Virus record (IMG/VR): IMGVR_UViG_3300042351_000704
Coordinates: 32,001 to 96,000 of that record
Reading direction: 5' to 3' (one strand)
From: a virus
DNA length: 64,000 nt
The position numbers were made by a program, and so were the translations under genes. Below, piece after piece: positions 3,356 to 50,197 of this stretch. The number at the start of each line of letters is the position of its first letter. The first letter of the stretch is position 1. Under the pieces are notes generated by a model. That model had not been told where the DNA came from. It was given only the letters and a program-made list of their open reading frames with translations, and did not search any database.

Positions 3356-3356
3356 G

Positions 3357-26545: not shown

Positions 26546-29500
26546 ATGACAGAGCAAGCATTAAATACCGTTGACACTGAGTCAATCAATACTGGTTTTG
26601 ATCTGGAGGGTATTAATGACCCGATGGATGCACTGGGCAACTTTGACCTGGAACAAATGGAACAGGCAGACGGAGGTGGTCCTGGAGATCCTGTAAAGAA
26701 AAAGCCTGTGACTATGGCTGATCTGAAAAAGGATTACCAGATCGATATGCAGCAATCTAAAATGTTAGCAGAGATTGGTATTCCTAAGATGGCTGATGAA
26801 AGCCGTAATAAGTTTCAGGCTGCCAGAGTAGTTGAGTTTGATGCCAAGAAACTAAACGTAGACCGTTACCTCGGTTATGGTAAAGAAACTTTTAATAAGG
26901 TGGGATTCTCTCCCTTTATAGATAACGAAGCAAAGTTTAATCAGAACACTACGATCTGGCAGGACTTCGGTCGTATGAGTAGTGTGTTTGGAGCACTGGC
27001 CTATGAAGGTGGTGTATCAGGCTACCGATCTATTGGTGGCATGTTAAGTGGAGATAGTTTTTTTACTCCTGATGATGAGACAGCAGAAAACTTTGCGCGT
27101 TTGCAAAGTATTGGTATGTCTACCAAAGGAGGTATTAGCGCATTTGCCAACAACTTTGCGTTGAACTCTGCTTATACAGTGGGGATTGGTATGAGCATTA
27201 TAGCAGAAGAAGCTGCTCTTTTTGGTGCTACTGTATTGACAGAAGGTGCTATGGGTGGTCTTGCTGCCATGAGAACATCAGCCAACGCAGCGCGTATGGG
27301 TAGAGCTTTGAAGCAAGCATTCAATACCAACGCTGTACAAAATATAGCCACTGGAGGAATGCAACTGGCTAAATCACTATCTAAAGTGGGTGATGCAAAA
27401 AATTTCTACACTGCTGTAAAAACAGGAGCTACTACATTTGGTAAAGGAACTCTTCAATTTATCAATCCACTCACCCGTACAGTAGATGATCTCACTGACA
27501 TTGCCAGAGGTAGTGCCAGTGTACGTAACATGAGCAACCTGGCAAAAGCCAAACAAACCTTTGGTTCTTTTTATCGTGATGTACGTGATACCAACCTGGC
27601 CCTTTCTGAATCAAAACTTGAGGGTGGTAGTGCAAAAATAGATAAGGTGAACGAACTGCTGGCCCGTTATGAAAACGAAAACGGACGTCCTGCAGAAGGT
27701 AAAGATCTGGAAATGATCTACAAGCAGGCAGACGATACCGGACATGGTGTTACGGCTGTTAACTTTCCTATTATATATATGACCAACCGTGTGGTGCTTG
27801 ATGGTCTGTTTAAGTTCCGTGGATTAAAAACCCTGGATGAAGCAGGTACACTGGCTACCAAAGGAATTGGTTTTAAAAAAGGCGTAGGCTTCTACGATGA
27901 CCTGGGTAAAAGCTGGTTAAAGAATGGTGCCAAAAGCCTGCTTAAGCCGAAAGCTTACATCGGAATGGGTGTAGGTTATATCAGAAGAAACCTGATGGAA
28001 GGTGTGCAGGAAAACTTGCAGAACGTTACATCAGATGCAGTGGGTGCTTACTATGATGGTGTATACAAAGATCGTACGTTAGGTGGATTTGAATATGCAG
28101 CCGGTCATGCATGGAACGCACTGGGTAAAGAAGTCACTTCTCTACGCGGACTGGAAACCTTTGCATCCGGATTTTTAATGGGAGGTTTTATGGGTAAAGC
28201 CCAGAATCTTTTCTTAAAAGACGTACCGGGTATATATTACCGTGTTGGACAGCCTACCAAGTATGCAGAATACAAAGCAAACAAAGCAAAGACTAGACAA
28301 GAAGCAATTGCTGGTCTGAATGAACTATACAACAACCCGATGAAATATTTTAACTCCCGTAACGAAAGTGCGGTAGTACAAAAGCATACATCGGATGTAA
28401 TGAACCAGGCAGAAGTTGAGGGTGACGCCAAGACATTCCAGGATGCTAAAGACTTAAAGATGTTTGATCACATCTTTACTGCCCTGGATAACGGCACCTA
28501 TGATAATTTACTAGGTGCTTACAAGGAACTATCTAAGATGGATTCCAAAGACCTGGCTAATTTCCTGGGTATACCTGAAAGTGAAAAGTCGTCTGAGAAA
28601 CTGCAGGAGATTCTGGGTCGTGCCGAGCAGATTAAAGAACGCTACGAAACTATCAGCTCTCAGTTTAAAAACCCATTCACACCTACCAAACTTAAAAGAG
28701 GCACTCCTGAATTCACCAGGGAAGCTATTGCATTCAGAGCTTTTGAAAGTGCCAAGAAAACAGCAATTGCTTCACAGTACAACTTTGACAGAGCGCTGGA
28801 GAGAATGAATGGCCTGTATGATAACCTGGCTTCTGATCGTCCTATTGCCAAATCATCTGCTTCTGATATCACTACCCTGACAAACATGGGTATTTTAGAT
28901 GATGAGATCAGTTTGCTGGATAAAGAGATTAAGTCTTATGATGGCAGCTCTGATAAAAAACAACAGGAGCTGGTTGATCAAAAGAAAGAAAAGCTGGACA
29001 GGCTGATGGACTACAGAGACAAACTCCGTACGCACCTGGAAAATGCTAGCCAGGCAGAAACAGAAGAGGATGGTCAGATCAAGATTAACTTTGCACAAGA
29101 CACAGTGGATCCGTTAAAGGAAAGTTACAAAGCTTACCTGCGTCATATTGCAAAGGTGAATGAAGACTACATGTTTAACGACAAGGTAGATGATTCATTT
29201 GCTAAACTACTAGACTACTATGGTCTGAATCAGGATGCAGCCAATTACAGCAAGGTGGTAAATACACTGCTGGATCCAACCAATCTATATAAACATGCAG
29301 AACAGTTGAACGCAAGATTTACTGATCTGTTTACCAACAAAGAAGCAGACATCAACGATCGCGTAGAATCTGCACAGCGTATGATGGAAATGTCTGAGTT
29401 GGTAAAAGCTTTAGCTGCTCAGGGTGTCATGCTTGAACCTGCAGAACTCGAAGAGTTTGTAAAATCAGGTAAGAGACCTACTACATTTATTGATGCAGCT

Positions 29501-31438
29501 ACACTAAAAGACCTGGAGCCTGGCAGCCAAAAGTTTATTGCAGCACAGGCTATCATGAATATTGATCAGGAGATTACTACTCCAGATGTTACACCTGCTA
29601 CGGAAACTGCCCCTGCTAGTACAGCAGCTGCACCAACCGCTGCTCCTGTGGAAGCTTCTGCATCCAATATAGATGTAGGCATAGAGCCTGAGTTACAGAT
29701 CAAGCTGGAGGATGCGTTTAACCAGTTCGTAGAAGAGACCGGTTCAGAGATGACTTTTGAGGACTTTGTAAAAGTATCACCAAGAGCAGCGCGTATCAAA
29801 ACAGCATTCAATAAAGGTAAAGCCCCGGCTACCAAAACTACTACTGCTCCTGTTACAGAAACAACGCCTGCAGCTGCAGAGCCTGTAGCCGCTGATACAG
29901 AGGCTGATACACAGTTTGGAGAGAATATGTTAAGTGATTTAAAAAAGCTTAACGATGATTTACAGCAAGGTGATACACAAGAAGAACAACCTGCTTCTAC
30001 ACCAGAAGCTCCTGTAAACTTAAATGCAGAGTTGGTAAAGACGTTAACAGAAGAAAGAGATCAAAAGCTTTCAGATCTAATGCCTCTCTACGCTACAGCT
30101 AGAAAGACTATGATGCAACTAGGGGATGAGGCTTTAGATCCAGAAGACCGTAATATTTTAGCAGATCCTGTTAAGTATTTAGAAGGTCGCATTGCACAAG
30201 GGGAATATAGCTTACAGCTAGATATAGATAAGTTAAAAGCACTTGATACTAATAATCCTGATAATGCTAAGGAAGCTGAAAACTTACAACGTGATATTGA
30301 TACAGAAAAAATTGTTTTAGAAAAGACAAACATTAAACTTGAAAAGATAAAAGCTGTAGTAGCTGAGTATAATGATAAGATGAGTAGAATAGGAGAAACT
30401 TCTGTTGCTACTACACCTACTCAAACAACTTCTGTAGAAATATCTTCTAACGCCAAAGGTTTAGCTGCTGCTCTTACTAACCCAACCGAGCTGGCTAAAA
30501 AGAAAGGAAACTTAACAGCGTCTTATCCTGTAACTGTACGTGGAAAAGAATATGCTGATGCAGAGGCTGCTTACCAGGCGCTGAAAGGAACTGCTACCAA
30601 AGATGATGGTCCGAACAGCACCTACAATCTGATGGTGGAAATCTTGAAAGCTAAGCTAGAGCAACACCCTAGGCTTGTATCAGAAATAGATAAAGCTGGT
30701 GGTGAAAGCTGGTTGTCAAAAGCTACGCACCAACCTACTAATAAAAACACGGTTTGGGAAACAGGCGGTAAGAACTGGTTTATAAAAGCTCTTACAGAGG
30801 CGTATACTAGCACTAAAGAAACTCAGACTGTAGAAACAGCACCAACTGCTGCACAAAAAACTGGTGTCCAAACGGCCCAGGATCTAATAGATTCCGTATC
30901 TTCTATTAGGGACCTTCCTGACCTTAACAGAGCAGACAGCGGACCGGTTACTATTGACCTGATAGAGCTAGTTTCTACCGGCCAAGTGAAGAGCAAGGAC
31001 ATCGTACCAATGCTTGTAAAAAAGCGTGCTGAACTTCTTAAGAACATTTCCCCAAGCGATCTACAAAAAGGTGATATTGTTACATTTGTAGACGGTAGAA
31101 AAGGCTTTGTAAAATCTGTTAGCCCTACAGAAGTCAGCGTAAAAATAGCAGGCTCCCCTTCAGGTGTTGCGGAGGTAATTTCCAGCCAAGCACTATCTTC
31201 TTCTATAGCAAATGTTGAACCCGGCAAAGCAATCTCAATGGAACCAACACCAGACATTGAAGTGACTCCTCAAGACAATACCGAGGTGAAAGCTTCTCAA
31301 GATACAAAGAGTGCCTTTACAGAAAACTCTGCTGCTGTAAAAGAAGCAGGAGACAAAGCTGCTAAGGCCGCAGGTACAGATAACCTGCAGAATCTAAATA
31401 ACCTCATTCAGAACATAGGATGTAAAACAGGTAACTAA
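26546..31438 (+). CDS. Large ejection protein (1630 aa) with Gly/Ala hydrophobic segments and an inserted NADAR-like domain
   Basis: Immediately upstream of the vRNAP. NADAR-like segment at about 30434-30805. Single Cys at residue 1626. Confidence 0.8.
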   Translation: MTEQALNTVDTESINTGFDLEGINDPMDALGNFDLEQMEQADGGGPGDPVKKKPVTMADLKKDYQIDMQQSKMLAEIGIPKMADESRNKFQAARVVEFDAKKLNVDRYLGYGKETFNKVGFSPFIDNEAKFNQNTTIWQDFGRMSSVFGALAYEGGVSGYRSIGGMLSGDSFFTPDDETAENFARLQSIGMSTKGGISAFANNFALNSAYTVGIGMSIIAEEAALFGATVLTEGAMGGLAAMRTSANAARMGRALKQAFNTNAVQNIATGGMQLAKSLSKVGDAKNFYTAVKTGATTFGKGTLQFINPLTRTVDDLTDIARGSASVRNMSNLAKAKQTFGSFYRDVRDTNLALSESKLEGGSAKIDKVNELLARYENENGRPAEGKDLEMIYKQADDTGHGVTAVNFPIIYMTNRVVLDGLFKFRGLKTLDEAGTLATKGIGFKKGVGFYDDLGKSWLKNGAKSLLKPKAYIGMGVGYIRRNLMEGVQENLQNVTSDAVGAYYDGVYKDRTLGGFEYAAGHAWNALGKEVTSLRGLETFASGFLMGGFMGKAQNLFLKDVPGIYYRVGQPTKYAEYKANKAKTRQEAIAGLNELYNNPMKYFNSRNESAVVQKHTSDVMNQAEVEGDAKTFQDAKDLKMFDHIFTALDNGTYDNLLGAYKELSKMDSKDLANFLGIPESEKSSEKLQEILGRAEQIKERYETISSQFKNPFTPTKLKRGTPEFTREAIAFRAFESAKKTAIASQYNFDRALERMNGLYDNLASDRPIAKSSASDITTLTNMGILDDEISLLDKEIKSYDGSSDKKQQELVDQKKEKLDRLMDYRDKLRTHLENASQAETEEDGQIKINFAQDTVDPLKESYKAYLRHIAKVNEDYMFNDKVDDSFAKLLDYYGLNQDAANYSKVVNTLLDPTNLYKHAEQLNARFTDLFTNKEADINDRVESAQRMMEMSELVKALAAQGVMLEPAELEEFVKSGKRPTTFIDAATLKDLEPGSQKFIAAQAIMNIDQEITTPDVTPATETAPASTAAAPTAAPVEASASNIDVGIEPELQIKLEDAFNQFVEETGSEMTFEDFVKVSPRAARIKTAFNKGKAPATKTTTAPVTETTPAAAEPVAADTEADTQFGENMLSDLKKLNDDLQQGDTQEEQPASTPEAPVNLNAELVKTLTEERDQKLSDLMPLYATARKTMMQLGDEALDPEDRNILADPVKYLEGRIAQGEYSLQLDIDKLKALDTNNPDNAKEAENLQRDIDTEKIVLEKTNIKLEKIKAVVAEYNDKMSRIGETSVATTPTQTTSVEISSNAKGLAAALTNPTELAKKKGNLTASYPVTVRGKEYADAEAAYQALKGTATKDDGPNSTYNLMVEILKAKLEQHPRLVSEIDKAGGESWLSKATHQPTNKNTVWETGGKNWFIKALTEAYTSTKETQTVETAPTAAQKTGVQTAQDLIDSVSSIRDLPDLNRADSGPVTIDLIELVSTGQVKSKDIVPMLVKKRAELLKNISPSDLQKGDIVTFVDGRKGFVKSVSPTEVSVKIAGSPSGVAEVISSQALSSSIANVEPGKAISMEPTPDIEVTPQDNTEVKASQDTKSAFTENSAAVKEAGDKAAKAAGTDNLQNLNNLIQNIGCKTGN

Positions 31439-31440
31439 AC

Positions 31441-34400
31441 ATGGCTTGTAGATTATCAGAAGATCAAATATCCGCATTATTCGGAGCTGTTCACGGTGAC
31501 GTGATTGCTTCTAAGAACCGTGACGATAAGTTTAATGCATTACAAGCTATCAGAGACTTGTACAAAAAGTTAGTGGACGCTGGTGCCGAACCAGTAAATG
31601 CCCTAGATTATATCCAGCATATGCCTAGTATGCTATTGCTTAGCTATGCAATGTTTGAAGACAGCAAAGCGCACATGCGTAAAAGCCAGGTGAACCTTTC
31701 TGAGCTGGATCAAATGGATGCAGACTTTACAGCCGATATACAAAACGTTGCCAAGTTCATCATGCCCGCTCAAGCCGGAGCTGAACTGGTAAAAGAGATC
31801 ATAGAAGAAACTAATCCGTCTACCGGTGTACAACCTACCGAGGTGTATACACAAGTAGAAGACCTGGACATACAAAAGAAAAAAGAGTTCTATCAATCAG
31901 AAACTTCTTTTGTGGCAGCTCCTGAAACAGCGCTGGCTGTATTTAACCAGGAAGCTAAAAACTATGATGGTGCTACCGCTGAACAAAACATCCCGGACCC
32001 TGATCCTATCAAGCGTGCTTACTATGCTGTGGTAAGAAAGCTGAACAACCTGATGAGCCAGTACAATCGCGAAACAGCGGACAACCTGACCCTGGGTAAT
32101 GTAACCGGTATTTATTACAGACTGGTACCTGCCAGCAAGGTTGAATTTGAAGACCTGCAGCAATCAGATAAAGATTACTACTCTAAAGACGATAACCCGA
32201 ACGCTCCGTTTGCAAAGACTTCCCAGCAAAAGATGGAAGCCCGCACTACAGGAGATGAAACCTATCTGGTATTCACCGACAAGGAAGGTAACATCCTTCG
32301 CTTCAATGAAGAAGGTGTACCGGTAGATAAGGCAAGTGGTGGTATGGTGGCATACGGTAAACTCCGTAGACCTTACACACCAGCCAGAACCAACGAGGCT
32401 AAAGGCCAGGTGGCCGGTCAACGTATGGTGGGTCGTGTACAAACTGTCAATGACCTTGTTCGTAAAGGACTGGGTACAATGGAAGAGCTTACCAAAGAGC
32501 GTGAGCAGGAAATGGACATCTTACAAAAGTCCAGAGAGTATGTGGTAAACAATCCGGATGAAGTGTTACTGTTCTCTGTTATACCAGGTAAGAACGGTTA
32601 CATAAAAGAAGACTTTTCTGCACCTAATCCTATCAGCTCTATCGAGCTCACTGATGGCTTCAAACCGTTTGTTTCTAACCAGGATGCTGGTACACTGATT
32701 AAAGGTGGCGTATACTTCACTGTTCCTGGCTACGAGTTTCCATTACTGATCCGCAGACCAAAGTTTCAAAACATTCCGAACCTGGTAGATAACCTGGCGG
32801 ATATGCTTTTTGGTTCAGAGGCTTCTAATAATGACAAGATCAAAACCGTTAAGCAGTTTACTTTTTCTAATGATACCAACGTGTATGAAGTAGAAGGCAA
32901 GCTGATGTTCAAACAAAACGGTAAAGAGCTGGAGGTAACACCAGAAAACAAAGAGGCGTTTATCAATACGCTGAATGGTCAAACCATTAACATCAATAAA
33001 GACCTGGTTGGTACAACGATTAACATGCCTGTCAACATGGACGGCAAGGTGACTTTGCAACCAGAGCGTTACAATAACTTTTTATCAGATAACTTCTTTA
33101 CGTTCCTGGCTAAAAACGATGATGGTAAGATTGTTAGCCTGAATGCATATAATGTAATTGCTCCAACCGAGCAAACACAAACCAAGTTATTTGGTGAGGT
33201 GGCAACACCTGAAACCACTGCAAAAGAGTCTGCTTTAGAACAAGCTACTCCTTCTGATAACAGCATTGCTGATTTTAAGAGTTTACTGGAAAGCACAGAC
33301 TTCAGTTTAAAGAAGTCTATGATGCTGGATAGCACCGCTACTCAGGAGCAGATTGATGCTGCAGAGAAATGGTACAACAGTTCTCCTTACAGTAAGGTGG
33401 TGCCGTTTAGCGTTATGTTCAATGTAGTGAACTCAAATGCACTGGCTGAATTCACAGTATCGGGCATTACACTTTACTCCGGATCTAACTTTACAGATCT
33501 TTACCACGAAGCATGGCACGCGTTTTCTCAGATGTTCTTAACCAAGGACCAGAAGAAAGCGTTGTACAACGAAGCACGTAAACTTACCGGCAGCTTCAAA
33601 ACAGTAAGCGGGCAAACAGTTAAATATAGTGCTGCTTCTGACATGCAACTTGAAGAGTTTATGGCAGAAGATGTACGTAAGTATATTCTGTCTGATCGTC
33701 AGAACGTAATCAACGGACGCCCGGTACGTAATACATTATTCAGAAAGATCTTTACTTTTTTAAAGCAACTATTCAGCGGGTATAGTTTAAAAGACATTGC
33801 TGCTGACCGTACGGCTGTAAAAGGCATACAGGAGCTTTATGATAAGTTTTATGTAGGTAATGTCAATGACTATACTCCTTCTATCAGGAACGTACAATTT
33901 GGTATTCTTAACAAAGGGGTAGAAGCGTTAGACACTGCTACAGACCAATCACTGAACTACCAGGATTCTATGACCATGGTAGAAACCATTGACTCATTGA
34001 TGGCATCGATTATCTCTGATGCAGGCAAGAGTGTGGGTTCTATATTTACCCGCCCTGAACTGATGGGTCCTTTATACAAGACCATAAAGAGTAAGTTACA
34101 GGATATAAAAAACAATACACCTGCTGAACAAGCCAATGTAAATCGTATCCTGGACTTTGCTTTAGCTAACTGGGGAGATTTCTCTAAGGTGGCTAATGGC
34201 GAAGAAGCTACTGGTATGATTGCTTTCCATAAGAAGAGAAGCTCTTACTTCACGTTTGAAGACAGGATGGCTGAGATGGATGGCTTTGACCAGAAAGAAA
34301 ATGAGCAGGCTGCAGACCAAAAAGATGCAGACAACCCACTGGCTAAAACCGAGCAGGAGCTTCGTGAAGATTATGGAGCCAATGTATTTGAACGTAAGGG

Positions 34401-37400: not shown

Positions 37401-40400
37401 CAACATTGTAGTGAAGCGTCTGGTAAAACAAAAGATGAACGGTGAGCAGTTAGTACAAGTATCTGGTGCTGGTTTTGAAAGGCCAGGTTTTGTAAAAGCT
37501 ACCGAAGAAGATGCTGTAAAGTATGGTACAAACGATTTACCTACATACCGTCCAGGTAAAGGCAAAGATGGTAAGACATCTGCCATGAAAGTAAAGATCT
37601 CTATGAAAGGAGATTACTACAAGCTTCTGAACCTCAAGCATAATGACGGTGAAAAGATTGGAACCAGAGAGCGTCTTAATGAAATGATCAAAGACGATCA
37701 GTGGTTGGATAAAAGCGATCACCGTAAGATGATTACGATGGTGGGGGTACGTATTCCGGTACAGGGATTAAACTCTATGGAGTTTATGGAAGTGTATGAA
37801 TTCCTGCCTGAAGAAGCCGGATCTATTATCATACCACCTGCTGAGATTGTTGCCAAGAGTGGATCTGACTTTGATATTGATAAGCTCACTATATTCCAAC
37901 CGAACATCAAGACGGCTAAAGACGGTGTGCCTTCATTCATTAGTGCCAACAACACCAAGGGTACAGAAAACAAGATCATTGAAAAGATCCGTGAGATTCT
38001 GGAGCACCCAGATAACTTTGATGCCCTCATTCGTCCAAACGATACTGACCTGGTAAAAGGTGTGGCAGATGAACTGGCTGGTGAAAACATCCAAGGCTAT
38101 GATCCACTAGCTGTAAAGACCGGTGAGAAACGCAGTGGTAAGGGGAAACAAGTAATTTCCCCGACACGTGTACTGGAGCCAAGATATAATCTATATAAAC
38201 ACGAAAGTAATAACGTAGGTAAAAAGACTTTAGGTATTGGTGCGGTGGATAATGCTTACTCTTCTATATTTAAAAGAGTTGGTGCACGCCTTGAGAAGTC
38301 ATACACTCATTATAAGAGAGAAGATGGACAGATCAACTTTGAAAAAGAACCACAGATCCGTCCTATTAATATTCGCATGGATCATAACACCATGACAGAA
38401 TCAGGTAAAGAGTACATCTCTTTATCAGATATCAATACTGTTACCATGGATAAGGTGAGTGACCTGATTGGTCAGCTCATGAACGGATGGGTGGATATTG
38501 AAAAAGATGCCTGGATCTTTAACATCAACGGTAACAACGTTGCCGGACCGGTGCTGTTATTCTTACTCGAAACTGGTGTAGACTTTAAGACCGCTGCTTA
38601 TTTTGTATCACAGCCTTTAGTGGTTGACTACATTAAAGAAATCTACAAGGTGGAAAGCCCGTTTTATAATGCGGCTAATCCTTCCAGTCCGGTGGATTCA
38701 GAAAAAGGTCTGAGGAAGTTCAACGTAAAGAAAGATTTCTATATCAAATATCAGATGGGTGCCCTGACTAAAAAGGGTAACCTAAACAATGAATTGTTGT
38801 ATGGTGCTATAGAAGACTATAACAAAAACCGTACGTACGATGTAGCATCTTTACAAAAAGTAATCAAGTCTAAAGACAGGGACAGTGATGACGCGATTGC
38901 CGGACTCCTGCACTTTATAGAACTAGAAGAGCTTACTAAGCAGTTGACTAATATCAAGCTTACCGTGAACGTAGATACAGCTCCTTCTAAGAGTCTGTTT
39001 GCTGCTACTGAGCGTTTGGATAAGATTGAAGGACTAGAGTATGTTGATGCCGTACCGAAGAGTACGATCAATAATATCCTGACAGATTCTCCAATTAGTT
39101 CATTCCTGGTACAAAAGTTCCAGCTGGCTATCTTAAAGCCACTGATGAAGCTCAGAGGAGATGTAGAGGTAAATGCATTCTTGTTAAGAAAGATACAGGC
39201 CCGTAACTATACCAGAGCGTTTGCAACTGCAGAGAAGTTTGTAGCTGCTTTCCACAACGACCTTCCGTTATACATGATGCAGAACTACCTGAAAAGTGTA
39301 GATCTTAAAAACTTAAAAGAGTACAAAGGACTTGCTATTGAGCAGGCTGTACCAGTGAAGGGAGTTACACTCAGACAAGGTGCTTTTGTAAGAGACGGAG
39401 TGATGTATGTAGATATGGCTCAGATTGAAGATGATTTTGAAAACAATCATTACACTGGTCCTGTATACAAATCACAAGGACTGGCTACGCTGGACCCGGG
39501 AACATTTAGCATGGGTACCAAATTCCAGAACCTGCAGGAGTATGCACACTTTGTAATAGAGCGTGAGTATCTAAGATCTGTTACTCCGGTGGGTAATGCA
39601 TCCAGGGAAGTGTATGAGCAAAAGATCGCTAATCGTTCTTTAGAGCGTACGTTTAACTTTTATCACATGTTAAAAGCACCGGGTGTAAGTATTGCTGACC
39701 AGTTCCTGGACATCAAAACTAAATACGGTAAAGAGCTGACTGACCAGTACATGATTTTCTCAGAACTTGGATATGTCAACGAAGGTGCTAAAGTAGATGA
39801 AGAAGGTAATGTATCTCAGGGTAACAACAAAAAGCTCAGAACTTTAAAGCTGAACTCTGCCCGCCTGGATACAGATTTGATCAATGTACTGCATGAAAAC
39901 CTGGTGCGTCTGGCAGATCCTATGACCGTAAAGGTGGACAACCCTGCACAAAATGCGGAGATTAGTAAGTTCTTTAACCGCATGATCATAGCAGAATATT
40001 TAAGAGCAGGTATCACCAAGAGTGGAGACAACCTGGCTAAGATCCTGCCAAAAGAAACTTTACTGAAGCTGATGGCAGAGCCGTTACAAGAGCTGTCAAA
40101 CAAGCAAAATAAAACAGAGCTGCTCGATCAGTACTATGATCAGTTCATAAGTCTTTGGGATTCAAAGAATTCTAGCACTCGTTTAAAGTATCGTAACTAC
40201 CTGAAGCGTTCTGATATGGAAGGAACCTCACCGGCAACAGTGCGTACACTGGAAGATGTGGTAGAAGGAGAAGGTCTGAACGTAAATGCACAAGACCTGA
40301 TGGTGTATCCTGCATTACCAGGAGGAGCTAGTGCTACTAAGATGCTGGCTAATAATAACAACATCATGTTTGTATATCCAAACTTCAAGGATACTATGGG

Positions 40401-40779
40401 TATCTCTGCTAAGATGGATAAGGCAGACAACACGATCGCTTTCCCGCTGACTACAGATGGCAAGACTGCACTTACAGATGAGAACTTTGAAGAGAATGCC
40501 AAGAAGATTAATGACGCTATTACAGCCATAGAAACTCAGTTTGAAAATGGCAACGAGGTAGCGTTTCCAGAAGCAGGTATTACCATGGTAAATGGCAAAG
40601 ATCTGCTGGAAAATGCACCACGTACCAAGAGTTATATGGCTACTGAATTATACAAAAGATTAAACTACCTCACTCCAGGTATGCAGTATGACGCTAATGT
40701 GCGTACTGAACTGCAGAAGAACCAGGAAATCACCGATGAACAGGTGGAGGAGTTTATGAGAAAATGCTTTGGAGAATAA
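31441..40779 (+). CDS. Virion-encapsidated single-chain RNA polymerase (phi14:2 gp66-like) with zincin domain
   Basis: Catalytic GSDFDIDK (DFDID at 37867-37881) preceded by RIPVQG. HEAWH (33505-33519) with EEFMAE downstream. 3112 aa. Confidence 0.92.
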   Translation: MACRLSEDQISALFGAVHGDVIASKNRDDKFNALQAIRDLYKKLVDAGAEPVNALDYIQHMPSMLLLSYAMFEDSKAHMRKSQVNLSELDQMDADFTADIQNVAKFIMPAQAGAELVKEIIEETNPSTGVQPTEVYTQVEDLDIQKKKEFYQSETSFVAAPETALAVFNQEAKNYDGATAEQNIPDPDPIKRAYYAVVRKLNNLMSQYNRETADNLTLGNVTGIYYRLVPASKVEFEDLQQSDKDYYSKDDNPNAPFAKTSQQKMEARTTGDETYLVFTDKEGNILRFNEEGVPVDKASGGMVAYGKLRRPYTPARTNEAKGQVAGQRMVGRVQTVNDLVRKGLGTMEELTKEREQEMDILQKSREYVVNNPDEVLLFSVIPGKNGYIKEDFSAPNPISSIELTDGFKPFVSNQDAGTLIKGGVYFTVPGYEFPLLIRRPKFQNIPNLVDNLADMLFGSEASNNDKIKTVKQFTFSNDTNVYEVEGKLMFKQNGKELEVTPENKEAFINTLNGQTININKDLVGTTINMPVNMDGKVTLQPERYNNFLSDNFFTFLAKNDDGKIVSLNAYNVIAPTEQTQTKLFGEVATPETTAKESALEQATPSDNSIADFKSLLESTDFSLKKSMMLDSTATQEQIDAAEKWYNSSPYSKVVPFSVMFNVVNSNALAEFTVSGITLYSGSNFTDLYHEAWHAFSQMFLTKDQKKALYNEARKLTGSFKTVSGQTVKYSAASDMQLEEFMAEDVRKYILSDRQNVINGRPVRNTLFRKIFTFLKQLFSGYSLKDIAADRTAVKGIQELYDKFYVGNVNDYTPSIRNVQFGILNKGVEALDTATDQSLNYQDSMTMVETIDSLMASIISDAGKSVGSIFTRPELMGPLYKTIKSKLQDIKNNTPAEQANVNRILDFALANWGDFSKVANGEEATGMIAFHKKRSSYFTFEDRMAEMDGFDQKENEQAADQKDADNPLAKTEQELREDYGANVFERKGNELSVRELASNEIVYLIKSLPQLDKQGKPVLNALGVPKLVDFNRTWGIVINTVAGSNTTNQMYGKLLDAATRFPELKTLVARLGNPMDYKETKHWPYMKMWINFFRDFSVYRVPVKEGRLINSDGKFRFEFSEVNPQFRQVEKTFGAQFQSQTNNPYVTKSAAGNQLNTVKVMQDFPYSQIFGKDYTIINQDKAMDFLKAIGLYMTDNGAIREQIEKNYSAVSYLHKAVKDMAAKKTMPSNPVEALRKVEATSIRRLLTIEAADSGKYSNNAVLNVNGDVIFDLSLNNSITKLLNDLNDASKDYSMMQLPHLQHLDYRRNPFAKYSIWLNSMFSIPSGKMVDQKNINQRIKTDTNYASGMVTLDIVNLDGIKSVQERIAGGQSVEAGIKTTNLDPVSKFILDLHTMLSQGVMELPRHASKSTAYGVSVSKINSPFNTDKTRHLYISPGHFADKTRGLTYTVDLMLPKIAAEMERIAMVNQGVGANIPGFNQRGKEFMMFDDILSDATKTELKGMVSADDSLSPISTPEIKQKITADIQSYLNKLVTENTNLFNEMPFISDELLHSSRDGKSDIASYIRKDLGIAVGDDQQAMLRDVAIKAFTVNALIHNMETISVLYGDLAMYNHDKEEFHKRNAAIGSTGRIFASDEAVNQFIDNLGGAYARKIGANQRSFDGVLRSVVFKDNNVSSVYYNEYLEALTGKYGAEKAASILKPYKKMTEGDAQGWITFDSYRKLSLLEGAWSEKQNELYNKVVAGEQIDPSEISEFFPTKKFQYAGPVKTDKLHVQAFHKFSLVPLVPSLVKGTNMETLHDNLTKQGVDYALFESGSKMATLTANGTPDSLYENDDYTNRNIKPWNEGDATYTPNDVFIQYLKDQVDIQSTWKNKTIFSTQLRKLIINDTFKQGMALAGFEGLVKDFEGLLDTLQENKKKELLKEVGWTENASGELSGSVKNLMEFVIREMERLELPEHDIDYVREGVQNGTFTDLSFSLNAEMIEKMLNNIVVKRLVKQKMNGEQLVQVSGAGFERPGFVKATEEDAVKYGTNDLPTYRPGKGKDGKTSAMKVKISMKGDYYKLLNLKHNDGEKIGTRERLNEMIKDDQWLDKSDHRKMITMVGVRIPVQGLNSMEFMEVYEFLPEEAGSIIIPPAEIVAKSGSDFDIDKLTIFQPNIKTAKDGVPSFISANNTKGTENKIIEKIREILEHPDNFDALIRPNDTDLVKGVADELAGENIQGYDPLAVKTGEKRSGKGKQVISPTRVLEPRYNLYKHESNNVGKKTLGIGAVDNAYSSIFKRVGARLEKSYTHYKREDGQINFEKEPQIRPINIRMDHNTMTESGKEYISLSDINTVTMDKVSDLIGQLMNGWVDIEKDAWIFNINGNNVAGPVLLFLLETGVDFKTAAYFVSQPLVVDYIKEIYKVESPFYNAANPSSPVDSEKGLRKFNVKKDFYIKYQMGALTKKGNLNNELLYGAIEDYNKNRTYDVASLQKVIKSKDRDSDDAIAGLLHFIELEELTKQLTNIKLTVNVDTAPSKSLFAATERLDKIEGLEYVDAVPKSTINNILTDSPISSFLVQKFQLAILKPLMKLRGDVEVNAFLLRKIQARNYTRAFATAEKFVAAFHNDLPLYMMQNYLKSVDLKNLKEYKGLAIEQAVPVKGVTLRQGAFVRDGVMYVDMAQIEDDFENNHYTGPVYKSQGLATLDPGTFSMGTKFQNLQEYAHFVIEREYLRSVTPVGNASREVYEQKIANRSLERTFNFYHMLKAPGVSIADQFLDIKTKYGKELTDQYMIFSELGYVNEGAKVDEEGNVSQGNNKKLRTLKLNSARLDTDLINVLHENLVRLADPMTVKVDNPAQNAEISKFFNRMIIAEYLRAGITKSGDNLAKILPKETLLKLMAEPLQELSNKQNKTELLDQYYDQFISLWDSKNSSTRLKYRNYLKRSDMEGTSPATVRTLEDVVEGEGLNVNAQDLMVYPALPGGASATKMLANNNNIMFVYPNFKDTMGISAKMDKADNTIAFPLTTDGKTALTDENFEENAKKINDAITAIETQFENGNEVAFPEAGITMVNGKDLLENAPRTKSYMATELYKRLNYLTPGMQYDANVRTELQKNQEITDEQVEEFMRKCFGE

Positions 40780-40795
40780 ATAAAGAACATACCCT

Positions 40796-43700
40796 ATGTT
40801 AACATGCCCTAACAAAAGCTCGGCAGAGTGGAAACTATTAGTCAATGAAGTGGGAGAAAGAGAAGCTTTCAGAGCCTATCTCGCTAAAGGAGATGGATCG
40901 ATTCCTACTGTCCCTATGATGGAAATACCTACCGAGCAGGAACAAAAGACCCAGATAGGTCAGAACATTGCGCGTGCTATGGCAGATACTATAGCGCAGA
41001 ACATGGGTATTCCCTATAGCCTGGTAACACCTGTACAGGCAGCTGATTTAACCAAAGACTCTACCAATCCGTGGAAAGGAGAAAAAGCATTCTTCTTTAA
41101 CGGCAAGGTGTATTTTACAGAAGGTGGTTTTACTACAGAAAATGTGCTGCATGAATATGCTCACCCGATGGTTGCAGCGGTGGCTATCCAAAACCCTACG
41201 TTGTTTAATAACTTATACAAGCAATTAGAATCTACACCAGAAGGTGCTAGCATTATACAAGAAGTAAAAGATTTATACCCGGAGGCGGAAACTACACCTG
41301 GTAAGATACAGGAAGAAGCGCTGGTAAGAGCCTTAAGTGCACAGGCACAAAATAAGATCAATGGTGTAAAGAGCTCTACAGGCTTTACTGATTTTTTAAA
41401 TAAGCTGGTGTTTGCATTTAAGCAACTGTTACGTAAAGTGTTTGGTACAACCGTAAAGGTGGAGAAGCTTTCTACAGATACAACACTGAGCGAGCTGGCA
41501 GAAATGCTTAGAGGAGATAAGTTTGATATTCCTACAGATATTATTTCAGAGCAGGACTATGTAGATTACCTGCGTGACATCAGCAACTTTACCAAAGAAC
41601 TAAACAATGTGGAGTTTAGTGGCATTTCTTCTTCTGTAAGACGTTTCTATGATGTAGTAACTAACCATATCAGGCGTATACAGGAAAACAAGAACTACAC
41701 AGAAGCCCGTAAGTTCCTGGTAGATGAAACAGGACGCGGTCAGTTACAGGAATTAAAAGCTACACTCTCTAACTCAGAGATCGATCAGCGTTTGGCTGAG
41801 ATCTTTGACCAGGTAACCCTGGATGCTAAAACTACACAAAGCTTTGTACACTCTATTCTGCGTTTACAAAAGCTGACTGATAGTATATTCAATCATACCA
41901 AAGAGCTGGCTAAGCAAGGCTCCTCTAAAGAGGTGATCGGTAATATATTTTATTACGACATGTTGGTGCGTAACTGGAACAAGTACATCAGTGAGACTGT
42001 GGATCACCTGAGTGACAAAGGTCTTAACCCGAACTCGGAGTTTGGTCGTGTGCTTTCCGGTATTCAAAACACTATCGCTCAAACAGACCGTACGATCTCT
42101 AAGATTTATGCAGACAATGTCAATGATGTGATATATGAATCACTGGAGCCGCTTGCAAAAGACATAGACCGTTACTTTAGTGAATACATTACACAACTGG
42201 AAGCCAAGAATGCAGATCCTAAAAAGATTGCTGAAGTGAAAGACCAGTATGAAAAAATGAAAATTACCAAGGATAAGCTCAAAGACATGATCAGTGGTAA
42301 GCTAGGTGATACTAACCAGTACTCTGCTTTACTTGAAGCTTACACCAACTCTCCCGATCCGGTGATTGGTGGTTTTGCTATGTTTATTAAGAATGCGTAC
42401 AATGATGTAGACACACAGGCTCAGCGTAACATGAATGACTTTGCCCGTGACCTGGAGCCGTTACTAATGGCAGCAGGATACAGCCGTACTAATTATAGTA
42501 AGCTGATGTCAAAGCTTGTCACTACAGAGAAAGTACCTTATATAGATGAGAAAGGAAACTTTGCTACCCGTGAAGTGTTTGCCTTTAAAGATAAGTTTAA
42601 TGACTTCACTTCAGAGAGTGCCGAGTTAAAGCATAAGCTTGACCTGGCAATTGATAATGGAGACACTGCACTGGCAGATCAACTGCTTCGTGATATGCGT
42701 AAGTTGCGCAGGGACTACTTCCACCAGGAATATGTACCGGCTTACTACGAGCGTGAGAAGATCTATGACTCTGAAATCGGTCGTGAAACGTTTAGGCGTA
42801 AGCAAACAATCTTAAACAAAGTGGCTGAACTGGATGCACAGAGTTATGATGATGATTCCCTGGATGAGATTGCAGAAGAGAAAAAACTTTTATGGAGAGA
42901 GTATGCTCAGCTTGCTAGTCTCACTGACCTGAATGGTAATCAAAAGCAGGGTCGTGAACTGGAGATAGCCAAGACAGAAAAAGAATATAGAAAAGCCAGC
43001 CGTGAGTTTTTTGAATGGGTGCCTATTAAGGGTTTATTTGAATCTAACCTCAGACGTTTTGAACAAGGACTGGTAGATAATAATATTGATCCTGCTTCTG
43101 ATGAATACAAAGAGAAGCGTGATAAGTGGATCAAGAATAACACCGTGATTGCTTATACACAAGAGTTCTTTGAAGAGCGTAACCAGGTGCTGGAAGACCT
43201 GAAAGAACTAATGAGCGGACTGAGCGATCAGATCCGTAGTGCTGTGGATTCTTCTGAAGAAATGGAAGCAATGCTGGATATTGCTACAGGATTTCGTGAC
43301 CAGGATGGTCAGGTGATTGGTACCGATATATCAGAAACTAGTAAAGAAAAAGTAAGAAAGCTGCAGAAAGCTACTATTGATAAGCGTAACTCAATGGCAG
43401 GCTTTAGTGGTCTGACCAGGGAAGAGATGGATGAACTCAGCGGTTATTTCCAAAAGATTGTAGCCAGGGAAAAACTTACAGCCGAAGAGCGTAACCGTAT
43501 GGATGAGTTGATGGAGCGTAAAAGTAACCTAGGTGTAGATAAATTTACCAAAACAGAAATGCAGGCATTGTATGCCAAGCTGGGTGGTTTACAAAGTAAG
43601 GAAGCAACAGACTACTATGTAGATATTGTAAACAACTACATGGAAAAGATTGGTCAGCCGTTAATAGATAATGAATCAGCTGGTAATCTTTTACAGCCAG

Positions 43701-46081
43701 AACTATATGTCAAGCTGTTTAGTGAAAGTCCGGAGTTTGAGCAGTGGTTTAAAGAAAACCATATTGCCAAAGAAGTATATGATAGCGCTAAGGGTACAAC
43801 AAAAATGACGTATGAGCGTCTGTTTATCTGGAACCGTACGCGTCCTAATAACGAAGATCATTATGAAAAGATCACACTCTCTGATGGAGAAGTGGTGATG
43901 GGTAAACCAAACAATTCTTACTTCTACCGTTCTGTAAAAAAAGAACACCGTACCGAGCGTAAGGTGGGGGTTACTGTAGACAACCGTGGTAACTGGTTAC
44001 CAAAAACACTTGAAGAAGGAGCGGTAGATGATAAATATTACAACCAGGATTATGAAAAGCTACGCAGGGAAGACCCGGCTGCTTTTGCTGTACTGGAGAA
44101 GATGAAAGAATACCACCTGAAGTTCCAGGAAGGGTTTGCTAAAGAGAGTAAACTGTACATGCAGATACCTCGTTACCGTAAACCTTCTTTAGAAACACTA
44201 AAGAGTGGTGGAGTGACAAGTAAATGGGAAGAGTGGTCTACGCGTGTCAAGCAATTCTTTACTAAAGCACCCGATGATGTACAGGATGGATTAAACTTCA
44301 AGCCTGAGCAGCTGATATATGCTGACATGTTTGATGAAGAGATCAACAAGGTTCCTATAACAGGACTTTATGCGCTGGACCAAAGTCAGGTGAGTATGAA
44401 CATTGCTGACAGTATGTTGCGTTATATGCACTCTGGTCTGAAGCAGCGTAAACTAATTGAGCTAAATCCGATGGCACAAGCTTTAAAGAAAGCAGTGAGC
44501 AGCCCGGACAGTGCGATTAAGGACATGACCAAGATTAACAAGTGGCAGTATCAGAACACAGGTATAAAGAGTCATCTTACCAAAAAAGGTATGAGCGTAA
44601 GAGCAAAAGCTATCAATAATTTATACGAGCGTGAATTTGAGGGCAAGGCCCTAGCAGGTATGTTCAGTGACTCTCCTGGAATTCAGAAGTTCATTAGCGG
44701 TCTTTTAAAAATGTCAAGCAGTGCTATGTTCGCGTTGAACATTTTACCGAGTGCTGTTAAGAACCGCCAGTCTGCTATTGTGCAGTTACAGAATGAAGCA
44801 ACTGCAGGCAGATATATAAACTGGAATTCATACCTGCGTGGTAAAGGTCGTGCTGTATCTATGATGGCGGCTTACTCGTTCCAGTTATATAAGACAGGTA
44901 ACCGCAGCATGGATGTACAACTTTTGCAGGTATTTGATCCTACACAGGATATATTAAAGTCAACCTTTGGTGATGCACACGCCAGCGATATGGGTGGCCA
45001 GTTTGGTCGCTCGGTAGCTGCAGATGCGGCAAGCCTTGGGTTTTTAATGTCTACTCGTAAGTTCTTAGAAGTAGAATCAGTAGTGGAACTCTTTAGTGGT
45101 ATGATGCATCACGTAAAAGTGGAGCAAACTATTAACGATGAGACTAACGAGATCCGTTATATTGATGCGTTTGAAGTAGTCAATGGCCAGCTGGAACTCA
45201 AAGCTGGTATTGATAAAGAGTGGGCACCAGGTGGTGCAAAATTCAACGAGTTTAAAAATCGTGTACATGAACTGGGCAACCGTCTGTATGGTACCTATGC
45301 ACGTATGGATCAGCCGGAAGCGCAGCGTTACGTTGCATTCAAAGTGGCCTCTTTCTTGAAGCGTTTCTTTACCTCTATGTTAATGAACCGTCTGGGCGCT
45401 ACCCGTGGTAGTGCAGCTTTAGGTGGTGTAAGCACTGGTTATTACAGATCGGTATTACAAGTAGCTAAAGGCTTTGCTAAGTACGGGGTGAAGAACTACT
45501 ACTGGATGAGTGATGAACAACGTTCGAATCTGCTAAAGTTCACTTCTGACATGGCTCACCAGATGGCGCTGTTGTTTATACTGACTGCTGTGTTTGGATA
45601 CAACGACAGTGATCCGGACCGTTTTGAAAAAATGAGACAGCGTAGTGGAGCACTAAATGAAGAAGACTTTAACCTGCAAGGTTGGTTATTCAACCATGGA
45701 CTGGTGGCAACACTGGGTACACTAACGGAAACAGAAACCTTTGGTAGCTGGAGTCCGGTGACTATGGGTGCTGATGGTGATCTAGATGTTGCAATCCTGG
45801 GACGTAACTGGAAAACACTAAAGAATACAGCCGGCCAGATGCTTGATCCTAGAACACTGTATGCTACAACGATTAAAAGACAACTGGAACTCTTAGGTCA
45901 CGTGAGTCAGTTTATTGATGATGATCCTGCAGGCTTTTACAAGAAAGATGCTGGTCCTTACTGGTTCCAGAAAGAAGGATCTCCTAAGTTCTTAAATGAT
46001 GCGGGTGGTATTTTAGGCTTCACCGGATCGCAAGTGGATCCAGTGAAGGCACTAAAAGGTATGGAATTGGGCCGTAGATAA
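40796..46081 (+). CDS. Large ejection protein (1761 aa) with N-terminal zincin domain
   Basis: MLTCPN...EWKLLV..VGE.EA start. HEYAH (41150-41164) with EEALV downstream. Third giant gene, after the vRNAP. Confidence 0.8.
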   Translation: MLTCPNKSSAEWKLLVNEVGEREAFRAYLAKGDGSIPTVPMMEIPTEQEQKTQIGQNIARAMADTIAQNMGIPYSLVTPVQAADLTKDSTNPWKGEKAFFFNGKVYFTEGGFTTENVLHEYAHPMVAAVAIQNPTLFNNLYKQLESTPEGASIIQEVKDLYPEAETTPGKIQEEALVRALSAQAQNKINGVKSSTGFTDFLNKLVFAFKQLLRKVFGTTVKVEKLSTDTTLSELAEMLRGDKFDIPTDIISEQDYVDYLRDISNFTKELNNVEFSGISSSVRRFYDVVTNHIRRIQENKNYTEARKFLVDETGRGQLQELKATLSNSEIDQRLAEIFDQVTLDAKTTQSFVHSILRLQKLTDSIFNHTKELAKQGSSKEVIGNIFYYDMLVRNWNKYISETVDHLSDKGLNPNSEFGRVLSGIQNTIAQTDRTISKIYADNVNDVIYESLEPLAKDIDRYFSEYITQLEAKNADPKKIAEVKDQYEKMKITKDKLKDMISGKLGDTNQYSALLEAYTNSPDPVIGGFAMFIKNAYNDVDTQAQRNMNDFARDLEPLLMAAGYSRTNYSKLMSKLVTTEKVPYIDEKGNFATREVFAFKDKFNDFTSESAELKHKLDLAIDNGDTALADQLLRDMRKLRRDYFHQEYVPAYYEREKIYDSEIGRETFRRKQTILNKVAELDAQSYDDDSLDEIAEEKKLLWREYAQLASLTDLNGNQKQGRELEIAKTEKEYRKASREFFEWVPIKGLFESNLRRFEQGLVDNNIDPASDEYKEKRDKWIKNNTVIAYTQEFFEERNQVLEDLKELMSGLSDQIRSAVDSSEEMEAMLDIATGFRDQDGQVIGTDISETSKEKVRKLQKATIDKRNSMAGFSGLTREEMDELSGYFQKIVAREKLTAEERNRMDELMERKSNLGVDKFTKTEMQALYAKLGGLQSKEATDYYVDIVNNYMEKIGQPLIDNESAGNLLQPELYVKLFSESPEFEQWFKENHIAKEVYDSAKGTTKMTYERLFIWNRTRPNNEDHYEKITLSDGEVVMGKPNNSYFYRSVKKEHRTERKVGVTVDNRGNWLPKTLEEGAVDDKYYNQDYEKLRREDPAAFAVLEKMKEYHLKFQEGFAKESKLYMQIPRYRKPSLETLKSGGVTSKWEEWSTRVKQFFTKAPDDVQDGLNFKPEQLIYADMFDEEINKVPITGLYALDQSQVSMNIADSMLRYMHSGLKQRKLIELNPMAQALKKAVSSPDSAIKDMTKINKWQYQNTGIKSHLTKKGMSVRAKAINNLYEREFEGKALAGMFSDSPGIQKFISGLLKMSSSAMFALNILPSAVKNRQSAIVQLQNEATAGRYINWNSYLRGKGRAVSMMAAYSFQLYKTGNRSMDVQLLQVFDPTQDILKSTFGDAHASDMGGQFGRSVAADAASLGFLMSTRKFLEVESVVELFSGMMHHVKVEQTINDETNEIRYIDAFEVVNGQLELKAGIDKEWAPGGAKFNEFKNRVHELGNRLYGTYARMDQPEAQRYVAFKVASFLKRFFTSMLMNRLGATRGSAALGGVSTGYYRSVLQVAKGFAKYGVKNYYWMSDEQRSNLLKFTSDMAHQMALLFILTAVFGYNDSDPDRFEKMRQRSGALNEEDFNLQGWLFNHGLVATLGTLTETETFGSWSPVTMGADGDLDVAILGRNWKTLKNTAGQMLDPRTLYATTIKRQLELLGHVSQFIDDDPAGFYKKDAGPYWFQKEGSPKFLNDAGGILGFTGSQVDPVKALKGMELGRR

Positions 46082-46288
46082 TTATGGTTTACTGATATGG
46101 GTTAAGTCCAGGGTGATGAATATCAATCCCAGGCGTAACCTGGTAAAAGGTAACCATGTGTTTTTCTTTACTTCTACTTCTCCAGTGTCTACCATGACAC
46201 CAAACAATACTTCTGATTTACTAATCAGGGTTAACTTGAATTCAAACATAGAGGGATTATTTATCAGTGGTGAAGGGATGTTTGCCAA
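46082..46288 (-). CDS. Small hypothetical protein (start may be the later Met, MFEFK)
   Basis: Last gene of the minus-strand operon. Its stop abuts the stop of ORF 40796. Confidence 0.5.
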   Translation of the reverse strand: MANIPSPLINNPSMFEFKLTLISKSEVLFGVMVDTGEVEVKKNTWLPFTRLRLGLIFITLDLTHISKP

Positions 46289-46724
46289 TATAGCAATCTT
46301 CGTCCCAGCCCATGTGTTTTTTAAAACCGTTTATAAAACTGTGAATGTTAGCTGCACCCACTGGGTTATGGCTATGCACTGAAACTCTTTTCAACACCAG
46401 ATTGTTTTTCTGGATATGATCTACTAAGAACCGGGCCGAGTCGAGTCCGGTTTTTTCTTTATAAGACTCGTAGTCCGGGATCTGATACCCCTTCTGTGCA
46501 AGCTGGTTGAAGTAATCATCTACGTGTTCTTTTCCCAGGTCGTGATCAAACGAGATGAGATCCGGGATAGAGTTTTGCGTAATGTAATCAACGAACTCCT
46601 GATGGTTACGTACAACCACCCAAGGATCGTATCCCGGAATAGTGTCCGTAGGTGTACGTACATCGTCAAGGTAAAGCGCTGTTTTCATGGTTTTTGTTTT
46701 AGTTGAGAGATCTCGTTCATACAA
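46257..46724 (-). CDS. Cyclic-phosphate-processing receiver-like domain protein (likely start 46688)
   Basis: LYLDDVRTP...ISFDHDLG...TG.D...VHSHNPVG motif set. Confidence 0.75.
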   Translation of the reverse strand: MYERDLSTKTKTMKTALYLDDVRTPTDTIPGYDPWVVVRNHQEFVDYITQNSIPDLISFDHDLGKEHVDDYFNQLAQKGYQIPDYESYKEKTGLDSARFLVDHIQKNNLVLKRVSVHSHNPVGAANIHSFINGFKKHMGWDEDCYIGKHPFTTDK

Positions 46725-49342: not shown

Positions 49343-50197
49343 TTAGAATATATACCGGATACCAGCCGGGTTAAAGAATTCACTGTACAGGTTGGTGAAT
49401 TCCTGTATCATTTGTTTTTTCAGCTGCCACTGGTAACGTATATTATCCGGTGCATACTGAGAGTCTTTAGCTTCTTGTATCTCAGGACGCCATAATAGCT
49501 CTTGCACTTCAGCACTGTTGCGCTCGTGCTGCTGAATGTTGTGGGTCAAGAAGATGCACTCGCTTTTGGTTTCTATATCTGCAGCTTTAAGTTGTTCAAA
49601 GAGTTTGCGATATTCATCTAACCATCCTTCTGTATAGATAATAGGTGAGAAATTAATATGCACTTCCATATACTGCTGCAGTCTTGGTATGCTTGCTATA
49701 CGGTCTGCTATGCTGTCTGTACCTGGTTCTAATACATCAGAGTATATTTGAGGCATCAGGCTTACACGTATGCGGTGCTTGTCCGGATGTATTATAAATT
49801 TTTCAGTAGGACGGAACATTGTGGGATACTTAGTAGCAAAGGTGCTCTTGGCCATCTTGTGAGAATCAAACCAGTTAAATACCAGTTCCCAGTTATAGTG
49901 TTTACTCATCAGCGCTACATCGGTACTGCAGCCAATATCTATAGTGTAATACTGCTCGTCACATTGATTGGGTACTTTAGGCCAGGGTTTATCTACCAGC
50001 CAGTTATAGACCGATGATAAAATATCAATTGTGTTTTCATTGACATACACCTTGTCGTGGTTGTATCTTCCTACATAGCAGTAGGATTTCATACAACCAC
50101 CCAGGCACCCGTATATAAAGTTTGGACTGATAGCATCTGCTGATCGTCCGTTATCACGCGTAATGAGCGTTTTAGTTTTTTGTTTGATGATCTGCAT
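49343..50197 (-). CDS. splB: Spore photoproduct lyase-like radical SAM enzyme
   Basis: GCLGGCMKSYCY (50078-50107), DIGCSTD, FATK, RIRVSL, EPGTDSIADRI, FSPII, GWLDEY and terminal IRYIF parallel SplB motifs. Confidence 0.8.
   Translation of the reverse strand: MQIIKQKTKTLITRDNGRSADAISPNFIYGCLGGCMKSYCYVGRYNHDKVYVNENTIDILSSVYNWLVDKPWPKVPNQCDEQYYTIDIGCSTDVALMSKHYNWELVFNWFDSHKMAKSTFATKYPTMFRPTEKFIIHPDKHRIRVSLMPQIYSDVLEPGTDSIADRIASIPRLQQYMEVHINFSPIIYTEGWLDEYRKLFEQLKAADIETKSECIFLTHNIQQHERNSAEVQELLWRPEIQEAKDSQYAPDNIRYQWQLKKQMIQEFTNLYSEFFNPAGIRYIF

Follow-up and report, generated by a model that had tools for sequence, protein, structure and literature searches.

The 64,000-nucleotide (nt) stretch of viral DNA analysed here (the window; positions 32,001 to 96,000 of IMG/VR record IMGVR_UViG_3300042351_000704) raises the question of why three giant proteins, encoded at the end of a structural module and centred on a polymerase, carry cysteine (Cys) only at the termini by which they face one another. 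crAss-like phages are the most abundant human gut viruses. The delivery of megadalton protein cargo by these phages is an open question (PMC10172136). The three proteins, termed P1, vRNAP (virion RNA polymerase) and P3 (Table 1), together comprise 6,503 amino acids (aa) and four Cys, each located at most five residues from an inner terminus, and the two outer termini, i.e., the N-terminus of P1 and the C-terminus of P3, contain none. The best explanation, to which we give a probability of about 0.6 from sequence comparison and from analogy with another phage, is that a head-to-tail interchain disulfide at each junction joins the three giant cargo proteins inside the virion. The bonds proposed would connect P1 C1626 to vRNAP C3 (junction 1) and vRNAP C3109 to P3 C4 (junction 2).

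Translation of the open reading frames (ORFs) reproduced the four Cys counted in an earlier sequence-only reading of this DNA, as well as the Cys-free state of the 479-aa and 573-aa proteins encoded just upstream; all of its coordinates were correct, and the overlooked internal Cys that it had allowed for was found in none of the three giant proteins. Against a Cys background of 1.41% in the 43 other ORFs of the window, the five cargo proteins (7,555 aa) contain 4 Cys where ~107 would be expected (Poisson P ~2e-40), and the chance that four Cys would be distributed so that each inner terminus has one of them at most 5 residues away is ~8e-12. Within a comparison set of 162 other ORFs from the window and related loci, Cys occurs at residues 2–7 in 9% and in the last nine residues in 11%.

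The window is phage DNA, with virion structural families upstream on the plus strand, and DNA polymerase, helicase and exonucleases downstream on the minus strand. The end of the structural module is formed by five abutting plus-strand ORFs (translated ORF calls), the middle giant product of which can be assigned by its sequence to the crAss-type virion RNA polymerases of the phi14:2 gp66 family, since it matches PDB 6VR4 (phi14:2 gp66) with E 1.8e-24 over residues 1485–2197 of the query and 773–1429 of the chain, and the phi14:2 polymerase protein in BLASTP with E 1e-27; a megablast search of its gene against phages returned no match. From the proteomics of phi14:2 and crAss001, vRNAP would be a virion component that enters the host on delivery, and the position of the block together with the literature on those two phages points to virion-borne, polymerase-associated cargo, such that the three giant proteins are most likely packed and injected by this crAss-like phage. 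Neither P1 and P3 nor the two small cargo proteins could be placed in a family by searches of PHROGs and Pfam, and a NADAR-like domain that had been suggested for P1 was not supported by Pfam. The 479-aa protein occupies the slot of the crAss001 gp45/gp46-type cargo (PMC10172136).

The placement of Cys is retained over large evolutionary distances. Six IMG/VR relatives with 42–72% vRNAP identity share the four Cys and have hardly any besides. A Cys is found in the last six residues of 64 of the 65 vRNAP homologues, down to 21% identity, and at residues 3–6 in 52 of them; 45 contain no internal Cys at all (internal density 0.02%), and C3 is invariant in the vRNAP alignment (A3). The P3 homologues display an N-terminal Cys at residues 2–6 in 57/59 cases and a C-terminal Cys in 0/59, and C4 is invariant in an alignment of 43 of them. 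A profile of P3 residues 1–400 was also run against 1.84 billion representatives, which yielded 111 full-length proteins as 50%-identity clusters that span many lineages, although the homologue counts are not phylogenetically independent. Among these, Cys occurs at residues 2–8 in 103 and at residue 9 in two more, 80 contain exactly one Cys, and a C-terminal Cys is found in 0/111. Homologues of the C-terminal region of P1 carry a Cys, mostly their only one, within the last nine residues in 38/41 cases; an N-terminal Cys is present besides in nine, a sequence feature that suggests extra middle links in some phages. One vRNAP homologue (P0063), for which a search of viral_contigs gave no locus, shows an apparent break 188 aa past the catalytic motif, with a Cys at −2. 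As a separate observation, the fused polymerase proteins of gut Intestiviridae (L010, L012 and L013) contain 8–15 internal Cys, compared with 0–1 in the window and its environmental relatives L001–L006; the terminal pair is retained in these Intestiviridae despite the internal Cys, and thioredoxin is encoded nearby in several.

The co-occurrence of conserved terminal Cys in homologous triplets, which the sequence-only reading had named as a check, was observed at 29/29 separate junctions in 19 genomes, and the outer termini carried none. This arrangement, hereafter the terminal-Cys rule, is followed by phi14:2, PhiCrAssBcn14, DAC15, cr126_1, crAss002, a p-crAssphage-like genome, ctbg_1, cr8_1, cr1_1 and cr108_1, as well as by Flavobacterium phage Fpv1. 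In phi14:2, the one Cys of gp078 is its last residue, gp077 (the solved polymerase) has Cys at 3 and −2 only, and gp076 has Cys at 3 only. In the crAss001-like PhiCrAssBcn14, DAC15 and cr126_1, the sole Cys of the P1 homologue lies at −3, the polymerase contains Cys 5 and a Cys at −1 or −9, and the next protein contains Cys 4 or 5. In crAss001-like phages and DAC15, the P1 gene is encoded on the other strand and runs towards the remaining two genes, and the C-terminal Cys is kept; the pattern is thus independent of gene adjacency, and the requirement for gene order in the sequence-only reading does not hold.

Where two of the proteins are fused, the pair disappears. The 8 fused junctions have no Cys pair and at most one internal Cys (cr108_1 C1534, ctbg_1 C2921), within ~30 residues of the inferred fusion point. 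In the fusions of P1 with the polymerase, i.e., Fpv1 (4401 aa), cr1_1 (4551 aa), L016 (4711 aa) and cr108_1, an N-terminal Cys is absent from the fused protein and a C-terminal one from its upstream neighbour, and the pair at junction 2 is kept. Conversely, the fusions of the polymerase with P3 in Intestiviridae (ctbg_1, cr8_1, crAss002 and the p-crAssphage-like genome) have no C-terminal Cys and keep the pair at junction 1. Thirteen vRNAP homologues have no N-terminal Cys, and in 11 of them the catalytic motif is displaced to 2920–3620, as fusion predicts. A negative control is provided by cr108_1 (NC_055878, L011:19825-20114), in which a ~290-nt interruption inside the GSD|FDID motif, probably an intron, separates a first ORF ending ...AKAGSD from a next one starting ..YDIDK, and there is no Cys at either ORF end. 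The rule further bears on gene starts: in-frame MSC... starts that fit it lie 32 codons downstream in crAss002 (L020:13945-14050) and 21 codons downstream in CrAssphage C0526BW15 (p-crAssphage-like; L010:11774-11850), and by this measure the fused polymerase protein of each seems to have been annotated with too early a start.

These architectures also decide how the Cys could be connected. The sequence-only reading had considered an intramolecular vRNAP C3–C3109 bond; such a bond, like a single site in which four Cys hold one metal ion, is not general, because the fused partners hold a single Cys each. Only one pairing scheme fits all architectures in the comparison, namely a C-terminal Cys paired with the N-terminal Cys of the protein that follows. 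Alternatively, each terminal Cys might act alone, as an attachment or modification site or through a bond to another virion protein, a proposal that is compatible with the sequence data alone and to which T7 gp14 and its P-SSP7 counterpart, with Cys at residue 2, lend some colour. It is nonetheless quite improbable, as it leaves unexplained the joint presence or absence of the two Cys, the bare outer termini and the loss of both Cys on fusion.

The position of junction 1 differs between lineages, which allows the residue to be distinguished from the break. The zincin-like domain Z1 of the window vRNAP (residues 667–755) is homologous to residues 2135–2210 of the 2341-aa crAss001-type P1, and also to position ~1525 of the fused cr108_1 protein and ~2001 of the fused cr1_1 protein; the link to the crAss001-type P1 was obtained by pairwise BLAST in a small database, where the bridging hits had E values from 1e-11 to 1e-12, and the direct reach of a profile of vRNAP residues 560–950 was limited to cr108_1. 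Junction 1 is situated ~670 residues before Z1 in the window and 130–330 residues after it in Steigviridae (crAss001-like) and Intestiviridae, and the P1/vRNAP break thus falls ~800–900 residues earlier in the window's lineage than in the phi14:2/crAss001-type block. The Cys pair is present at both kinds of break, and since these positions are not homologous, the pair is a property of the break and not an inherited residue.

At junction 2, the column of C3109 is occupied by Phe or Val in L004 and L005, in which the Cys has moved into a six-residue C-terminal extension and P3 begins MACSIIRN in place of MLxCPNK; read from the sequences, this is a coordinated change on both sides of the junction. 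The codons at C3109 and P3 C4 switch synonymously between TGC and TGT across relatives, with spacers that range over 0–17 nt, and selection on the Cys thus acts at the protein level. The opposite explanation, that the Cys codons arise secondarily from a nucleotide-level junction signal such as translational coupling or RNA structure, or by chance, starts from the close spacing of the genes in the window, which abut with spacers of 2 nt (P1/vRNAP) and 16 nt (vRNAP/P3). However, the synonymous switches, the variable spacers and the Cys kept in the opposite-strand P1 rule out a signal of this kind, and the placement probability speaks against chance, so that this explanation merits next to no weight. 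P0154 and P0155, two homologues of the P1 C-terminal region, have a P3-like start (MAFCPN...) and end ...NMACSI; P3 of the MACSIIRN lineage begins with this very peptide, which may be a recombination scar at a junction.

Regarding the chemistry of the junction, the closest precedent is the pre-ejectosome of A4 (Anabaena phage A-4L), the cryo-electron microscopy (cryo-EM) structure of which (PNAS 2025) revealed a disulfide between gp27 Cys1715 and gp26 Cys5 in the virion (PMC12002296). In the A4 genome (KF356198), Cys1715 (of 1717 aa) and Cys5 (of 1114 aa) are the only Cys of these tandem-encoded proteins; as in the window, a giant upstream protein with a single near-C-terminal Cys is followed by the product of the next gene with a single near-N-terminal Cys. 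A disulfide is therefore the likeliest bond, because the A4 structure shows such a bond, because crAss001 virions have disulfides, located in the tail (PMC10172136), and because no metal ligands are conserved alongside the Cys. The last point also bears on the suggestion that the facing thiols share a metal ion in a zinc-clasp-like bridge, or else touch non-covalently. A shared Zn site can join two proteins, and acidic residues lie close to both termini, but with two Cys only per junction, no His, Asp or Cys partner conserved across lineages, exactly two Cys in all the cargo of the fused Fpv1 set, which excludes a single Cys4 site, and a disulfide in the A4 precedent, such a bridge is improbable. 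A multimer prediction for P3 1–600 with Zn and vRNAP 2880–3112 gave ipSAE values of 0.07 and 0.08, which speak neither for nor against binding.

The AlphaFold2 model of P3 1–400, with pLDDT 80–93 across residues 50–250, places Cys4 in an unstructured N-terminal tail (residues 1–9) before two short helices, a predicted position that is compatible with an exposed thiol; Foldseek found no significant match for this model, zinc peptidases being among the top non-significant ones. The flexible tail and an invariant HExxHP located 115 residues past C4 could also suggest a cysteine switch, in which P3 C4 or vRNAP C3109 caps the zinc of the P3 HExxH domain until delivery. The N-terminal Cys is, however, kept in P3 homologues without HExxH (crAss001-like g31, Fpv1 and cr108_1), and junction 1 has the pair, yet no HExxH lies within ~680 residues of it in this lineage; the switch was accordingly rejected as very improbable. 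Two further candidates were also discarded. A split intein with protein trans-splicing is incompatible with Cys at 1–9 residues from the termini, which leaves no room for intein halves (an N-intein measures ~100 aa), and the terminal Asn is not conserved. A bacterial lipoprotein lipobox was rejected since the Cys at residues 2–6 have no preceding hydrophobic signal.

In the proposed disulfide scheme, the other Cys would have been purged, as in the ejection proteins of other podophages, and the remaining thiols would substitute for the peptide bond wherever an ancestral or alternative polyprotein is split into separate genes. The disulfides would form after exit from the reducing host cytoplasm and would lock a pre-existing docking of the conserved terminal peptides. 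More speculatively, the tether might ensure 1:1:1 co-packaging and an ordered N-to-C exit of a ~6,500-residue thread via the tail, and reduction in the next host might open it. Fixed-proportion co-packaging, ordered exit and a static core like that of A4 are only candidates for its role. Stated in its most general form, the proposal is that any break in the cargo of Crassvirales or related Bacteroidota phages is mended post-translationally by a terminal Cys–Cys bond, so that 2–4 proteins including the RNA polymerase form one covalent thread of up to ~7,000 residues, which passes the tail in a fixed N-to-C direction and is severed into its active parts when it meets the reducing cytoplasm of the next host, a redox-gated delivery chain that tolerates gene fission; this extension is tentative, and we regard it as somewhat doubtful.

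The disulfides might instead be real but static, stabilizing an ordered core (a pre-ejectosome) on the portal as in A4, without any thread being pulled through the tail. In the pentameric ring of A4, the C-terminal helix of gp27 is locked into a gp26 cleft by the Cys1715–Cys5 bond (PMC12002296), and the terminal peptides in the window are conserved segments. On the other side, the reconstructions of crAss001 are without ordered density for gp47, gp49 and gp50 (PMC10172136), and the pair is lost on fusion, so that a peptide bond can replace it, for which a linear tether is a better fit than a specific lock. A purely static role is thus unlikely, though it has more in its favour than any of the other rivals.

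Several points weigh against the disulfide tether. Assembly takes place in a reducing cytoplasm and gut crassviruses inhabit an anaerobic environment, hence oxidation would necessarily follow release, and the crAss001 study compared reduced and unreduced virion samples, with nothing reported on the cargo proteins (PMC10172136). Across families, the residues that flank the Cys show only moderate conservation, which leaves a specific docking interface hypothetical. The precedent is an analogy, since no homology of A4 gp27 or gp26 to the proteins of the window was detected, and because the homologues are phylogenetically related, there were fewer independent events than the raw counts suggest. 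Taken as a whole, the pairing put forward by the sequence-only reading has strong comparative support, in that every separate junction carries both Cys, fused junctions and outer termini lack the pair, the pair follows the shifted break, and A4 offers a solved example; the chemistry of the bond rests on comparison and analogy.

Comparison with known systems further delimits the finding. The blocks gp67–gp66–gp65 of phi14:2 (GenBank gp078–077–076) and gp47, gp50 and gp49 of crAss001 resemble that of the window in having the homologous vRNAP in the middle, in their location where the structural module ends and in being virion-borne, and their Cys pattern, seen in phi14:2 itself and in crAss001-like relatives, is identical. 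A4 differs in having one junction, no polymerase-centred chain and proteins that form an ordered pentameric core, and the A4 paper contains no comparative rule that ties splits to fusions (PMC12002296). BLAST detected no homology of A4 gp27 or gp26 to P1, vRNAP or P3, and hhalign gave probabilities below 1%, so that the resemblance is functional or analogous and does not indicate membership of one family. The polymerase of Schitoviridae belongs to a different family. Cys suppression has been published for the ejection proteins of Schitoviridae, namely N4 gp50/51/52 and DEV gp71/72/73 (PMC11445570), which, like those of the window, are giant, injected and (nearly) Cys-free but have no terminal Cys pair; N4 gp50–52 contain 0 Cys in 4,294 aa, and T7 gp15 and gp16 contain none either. 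In P-SSP7 (L023:532-1558), ...RSGC closes a gp13-like protein and VCLGAAA opens the one after it, and T7 gp14 (L022:929-1519) starts MCWAAA; by sequence, T7-like cyanopodophages might have a comparable pair of terminal Cys.

A full-text literature search found no mention of terminal cysteines or of a covalent link for crAss cargo proteins, and the supplements of the crAss001 paper contained nothing on gp47, gp49 and gp50 (PMC10172136). The sequence-only reading knew of no description of such a mechanism, which stands as far as crAss-like phages are concerned; the mechanism is not wholly undescribed, however, because of the one-junction precedent of A4 and the published Cys suppression.

Table 1. 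Cargo genes, junction codons and domain motifs in the window.
Feature	Positions	Strand	Remarks
Small cargo protein, 479 aa	23372-24811	+	0 Cys; outside the proposed chain; homologues in L001-L004 likewise Cys-free
Small cargo protein, 573 aa	24822-26543	+	0 Cys, hence no C-terminal Cys towards P1
P1, first giant protein, 1630 aa	26546-31438	+	Sole Cys is C1626
P1 C1626 codon TGT, upstream half of junction 1	31421-31423	+	From translation
vRNAP, middle protein, 3112 aa	31441-40779	+	Cys only at 3 and 3109
vRNAP C3 codon TGT, downstream half of junction 1	31447-31449	+	From translation
HExxH of zincin-like domain Z1, vRNAP residues 689-693	33505-33519	+	H689, E690 and H693 invariant in vRNAP alignment
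Catalytic DFDID, vRNAP residues 2143-2147	37867-37881	+	Invariant in 32 homologues
DUF7831 domain, vRNAP residues 2966-3067	40336-40641	+	Directly before conserved C-terminal peptide ...FMRKCFGE
vRNAP C3109 codon TGC, upstream half of junction 2	40765-40767	+	TGT in L003-L005
P3, last giant protein, 1761 aa	40796-46081	+	Sole Cys is C4, in conserved N-terminal peptide MLxCPNK
P3 C4 codon TGC, downstream half of junction 2	40805-40807	+	TGT in L003-L006
HExxH(P) of zincin-like domain Z2, P3 residues 119-124	41150-41164	+	Invariant in P3 homologues

Additional features of the cargo proteins and their neighbours were recorded. P3 measures ~2500 aa in close relatives (P0069–P0073, L001:19618-27132, L002:19598-27163), ~750 aa more than the 1761 aa found here, and the extra part has PF13589 (HATPase_c_3). 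The distant vRNAP homologues P0042–P0048 contain helicase-type and DUF1768 domains. Upstream of the block, a structural protein of 1194 aa at 19726-23310 (+) contains exactly four Cys, 849, 873, 885 and 909, the spacing of which (24, 12, 24) is unchanged in its L002 homologue, and which may form a small metal or disulfide knot. The first opposite-strand genes downstream include 46257-46724 (-) and 49343-50197 (-); among their products are a protein with a cREC_REC domain (cyclic-phosphate processing receiver; PF20274, E 1e-19) and one that resembles spore photoproduct lyase (PF20903, E 2e-11).

For annotation, the terminal-Cys rule predicts true start codons and tells real protein junctions from intron-type interruptions in metagenomic data. 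If the disulfide tether is real, it would account for the free splitting and fusing of this gene block in evolution, and being conserved and covalent, it would offer a concrete and cheaply testable mechanism by which the polymerase and its partners could be packaged in set proportions and ejected in order.

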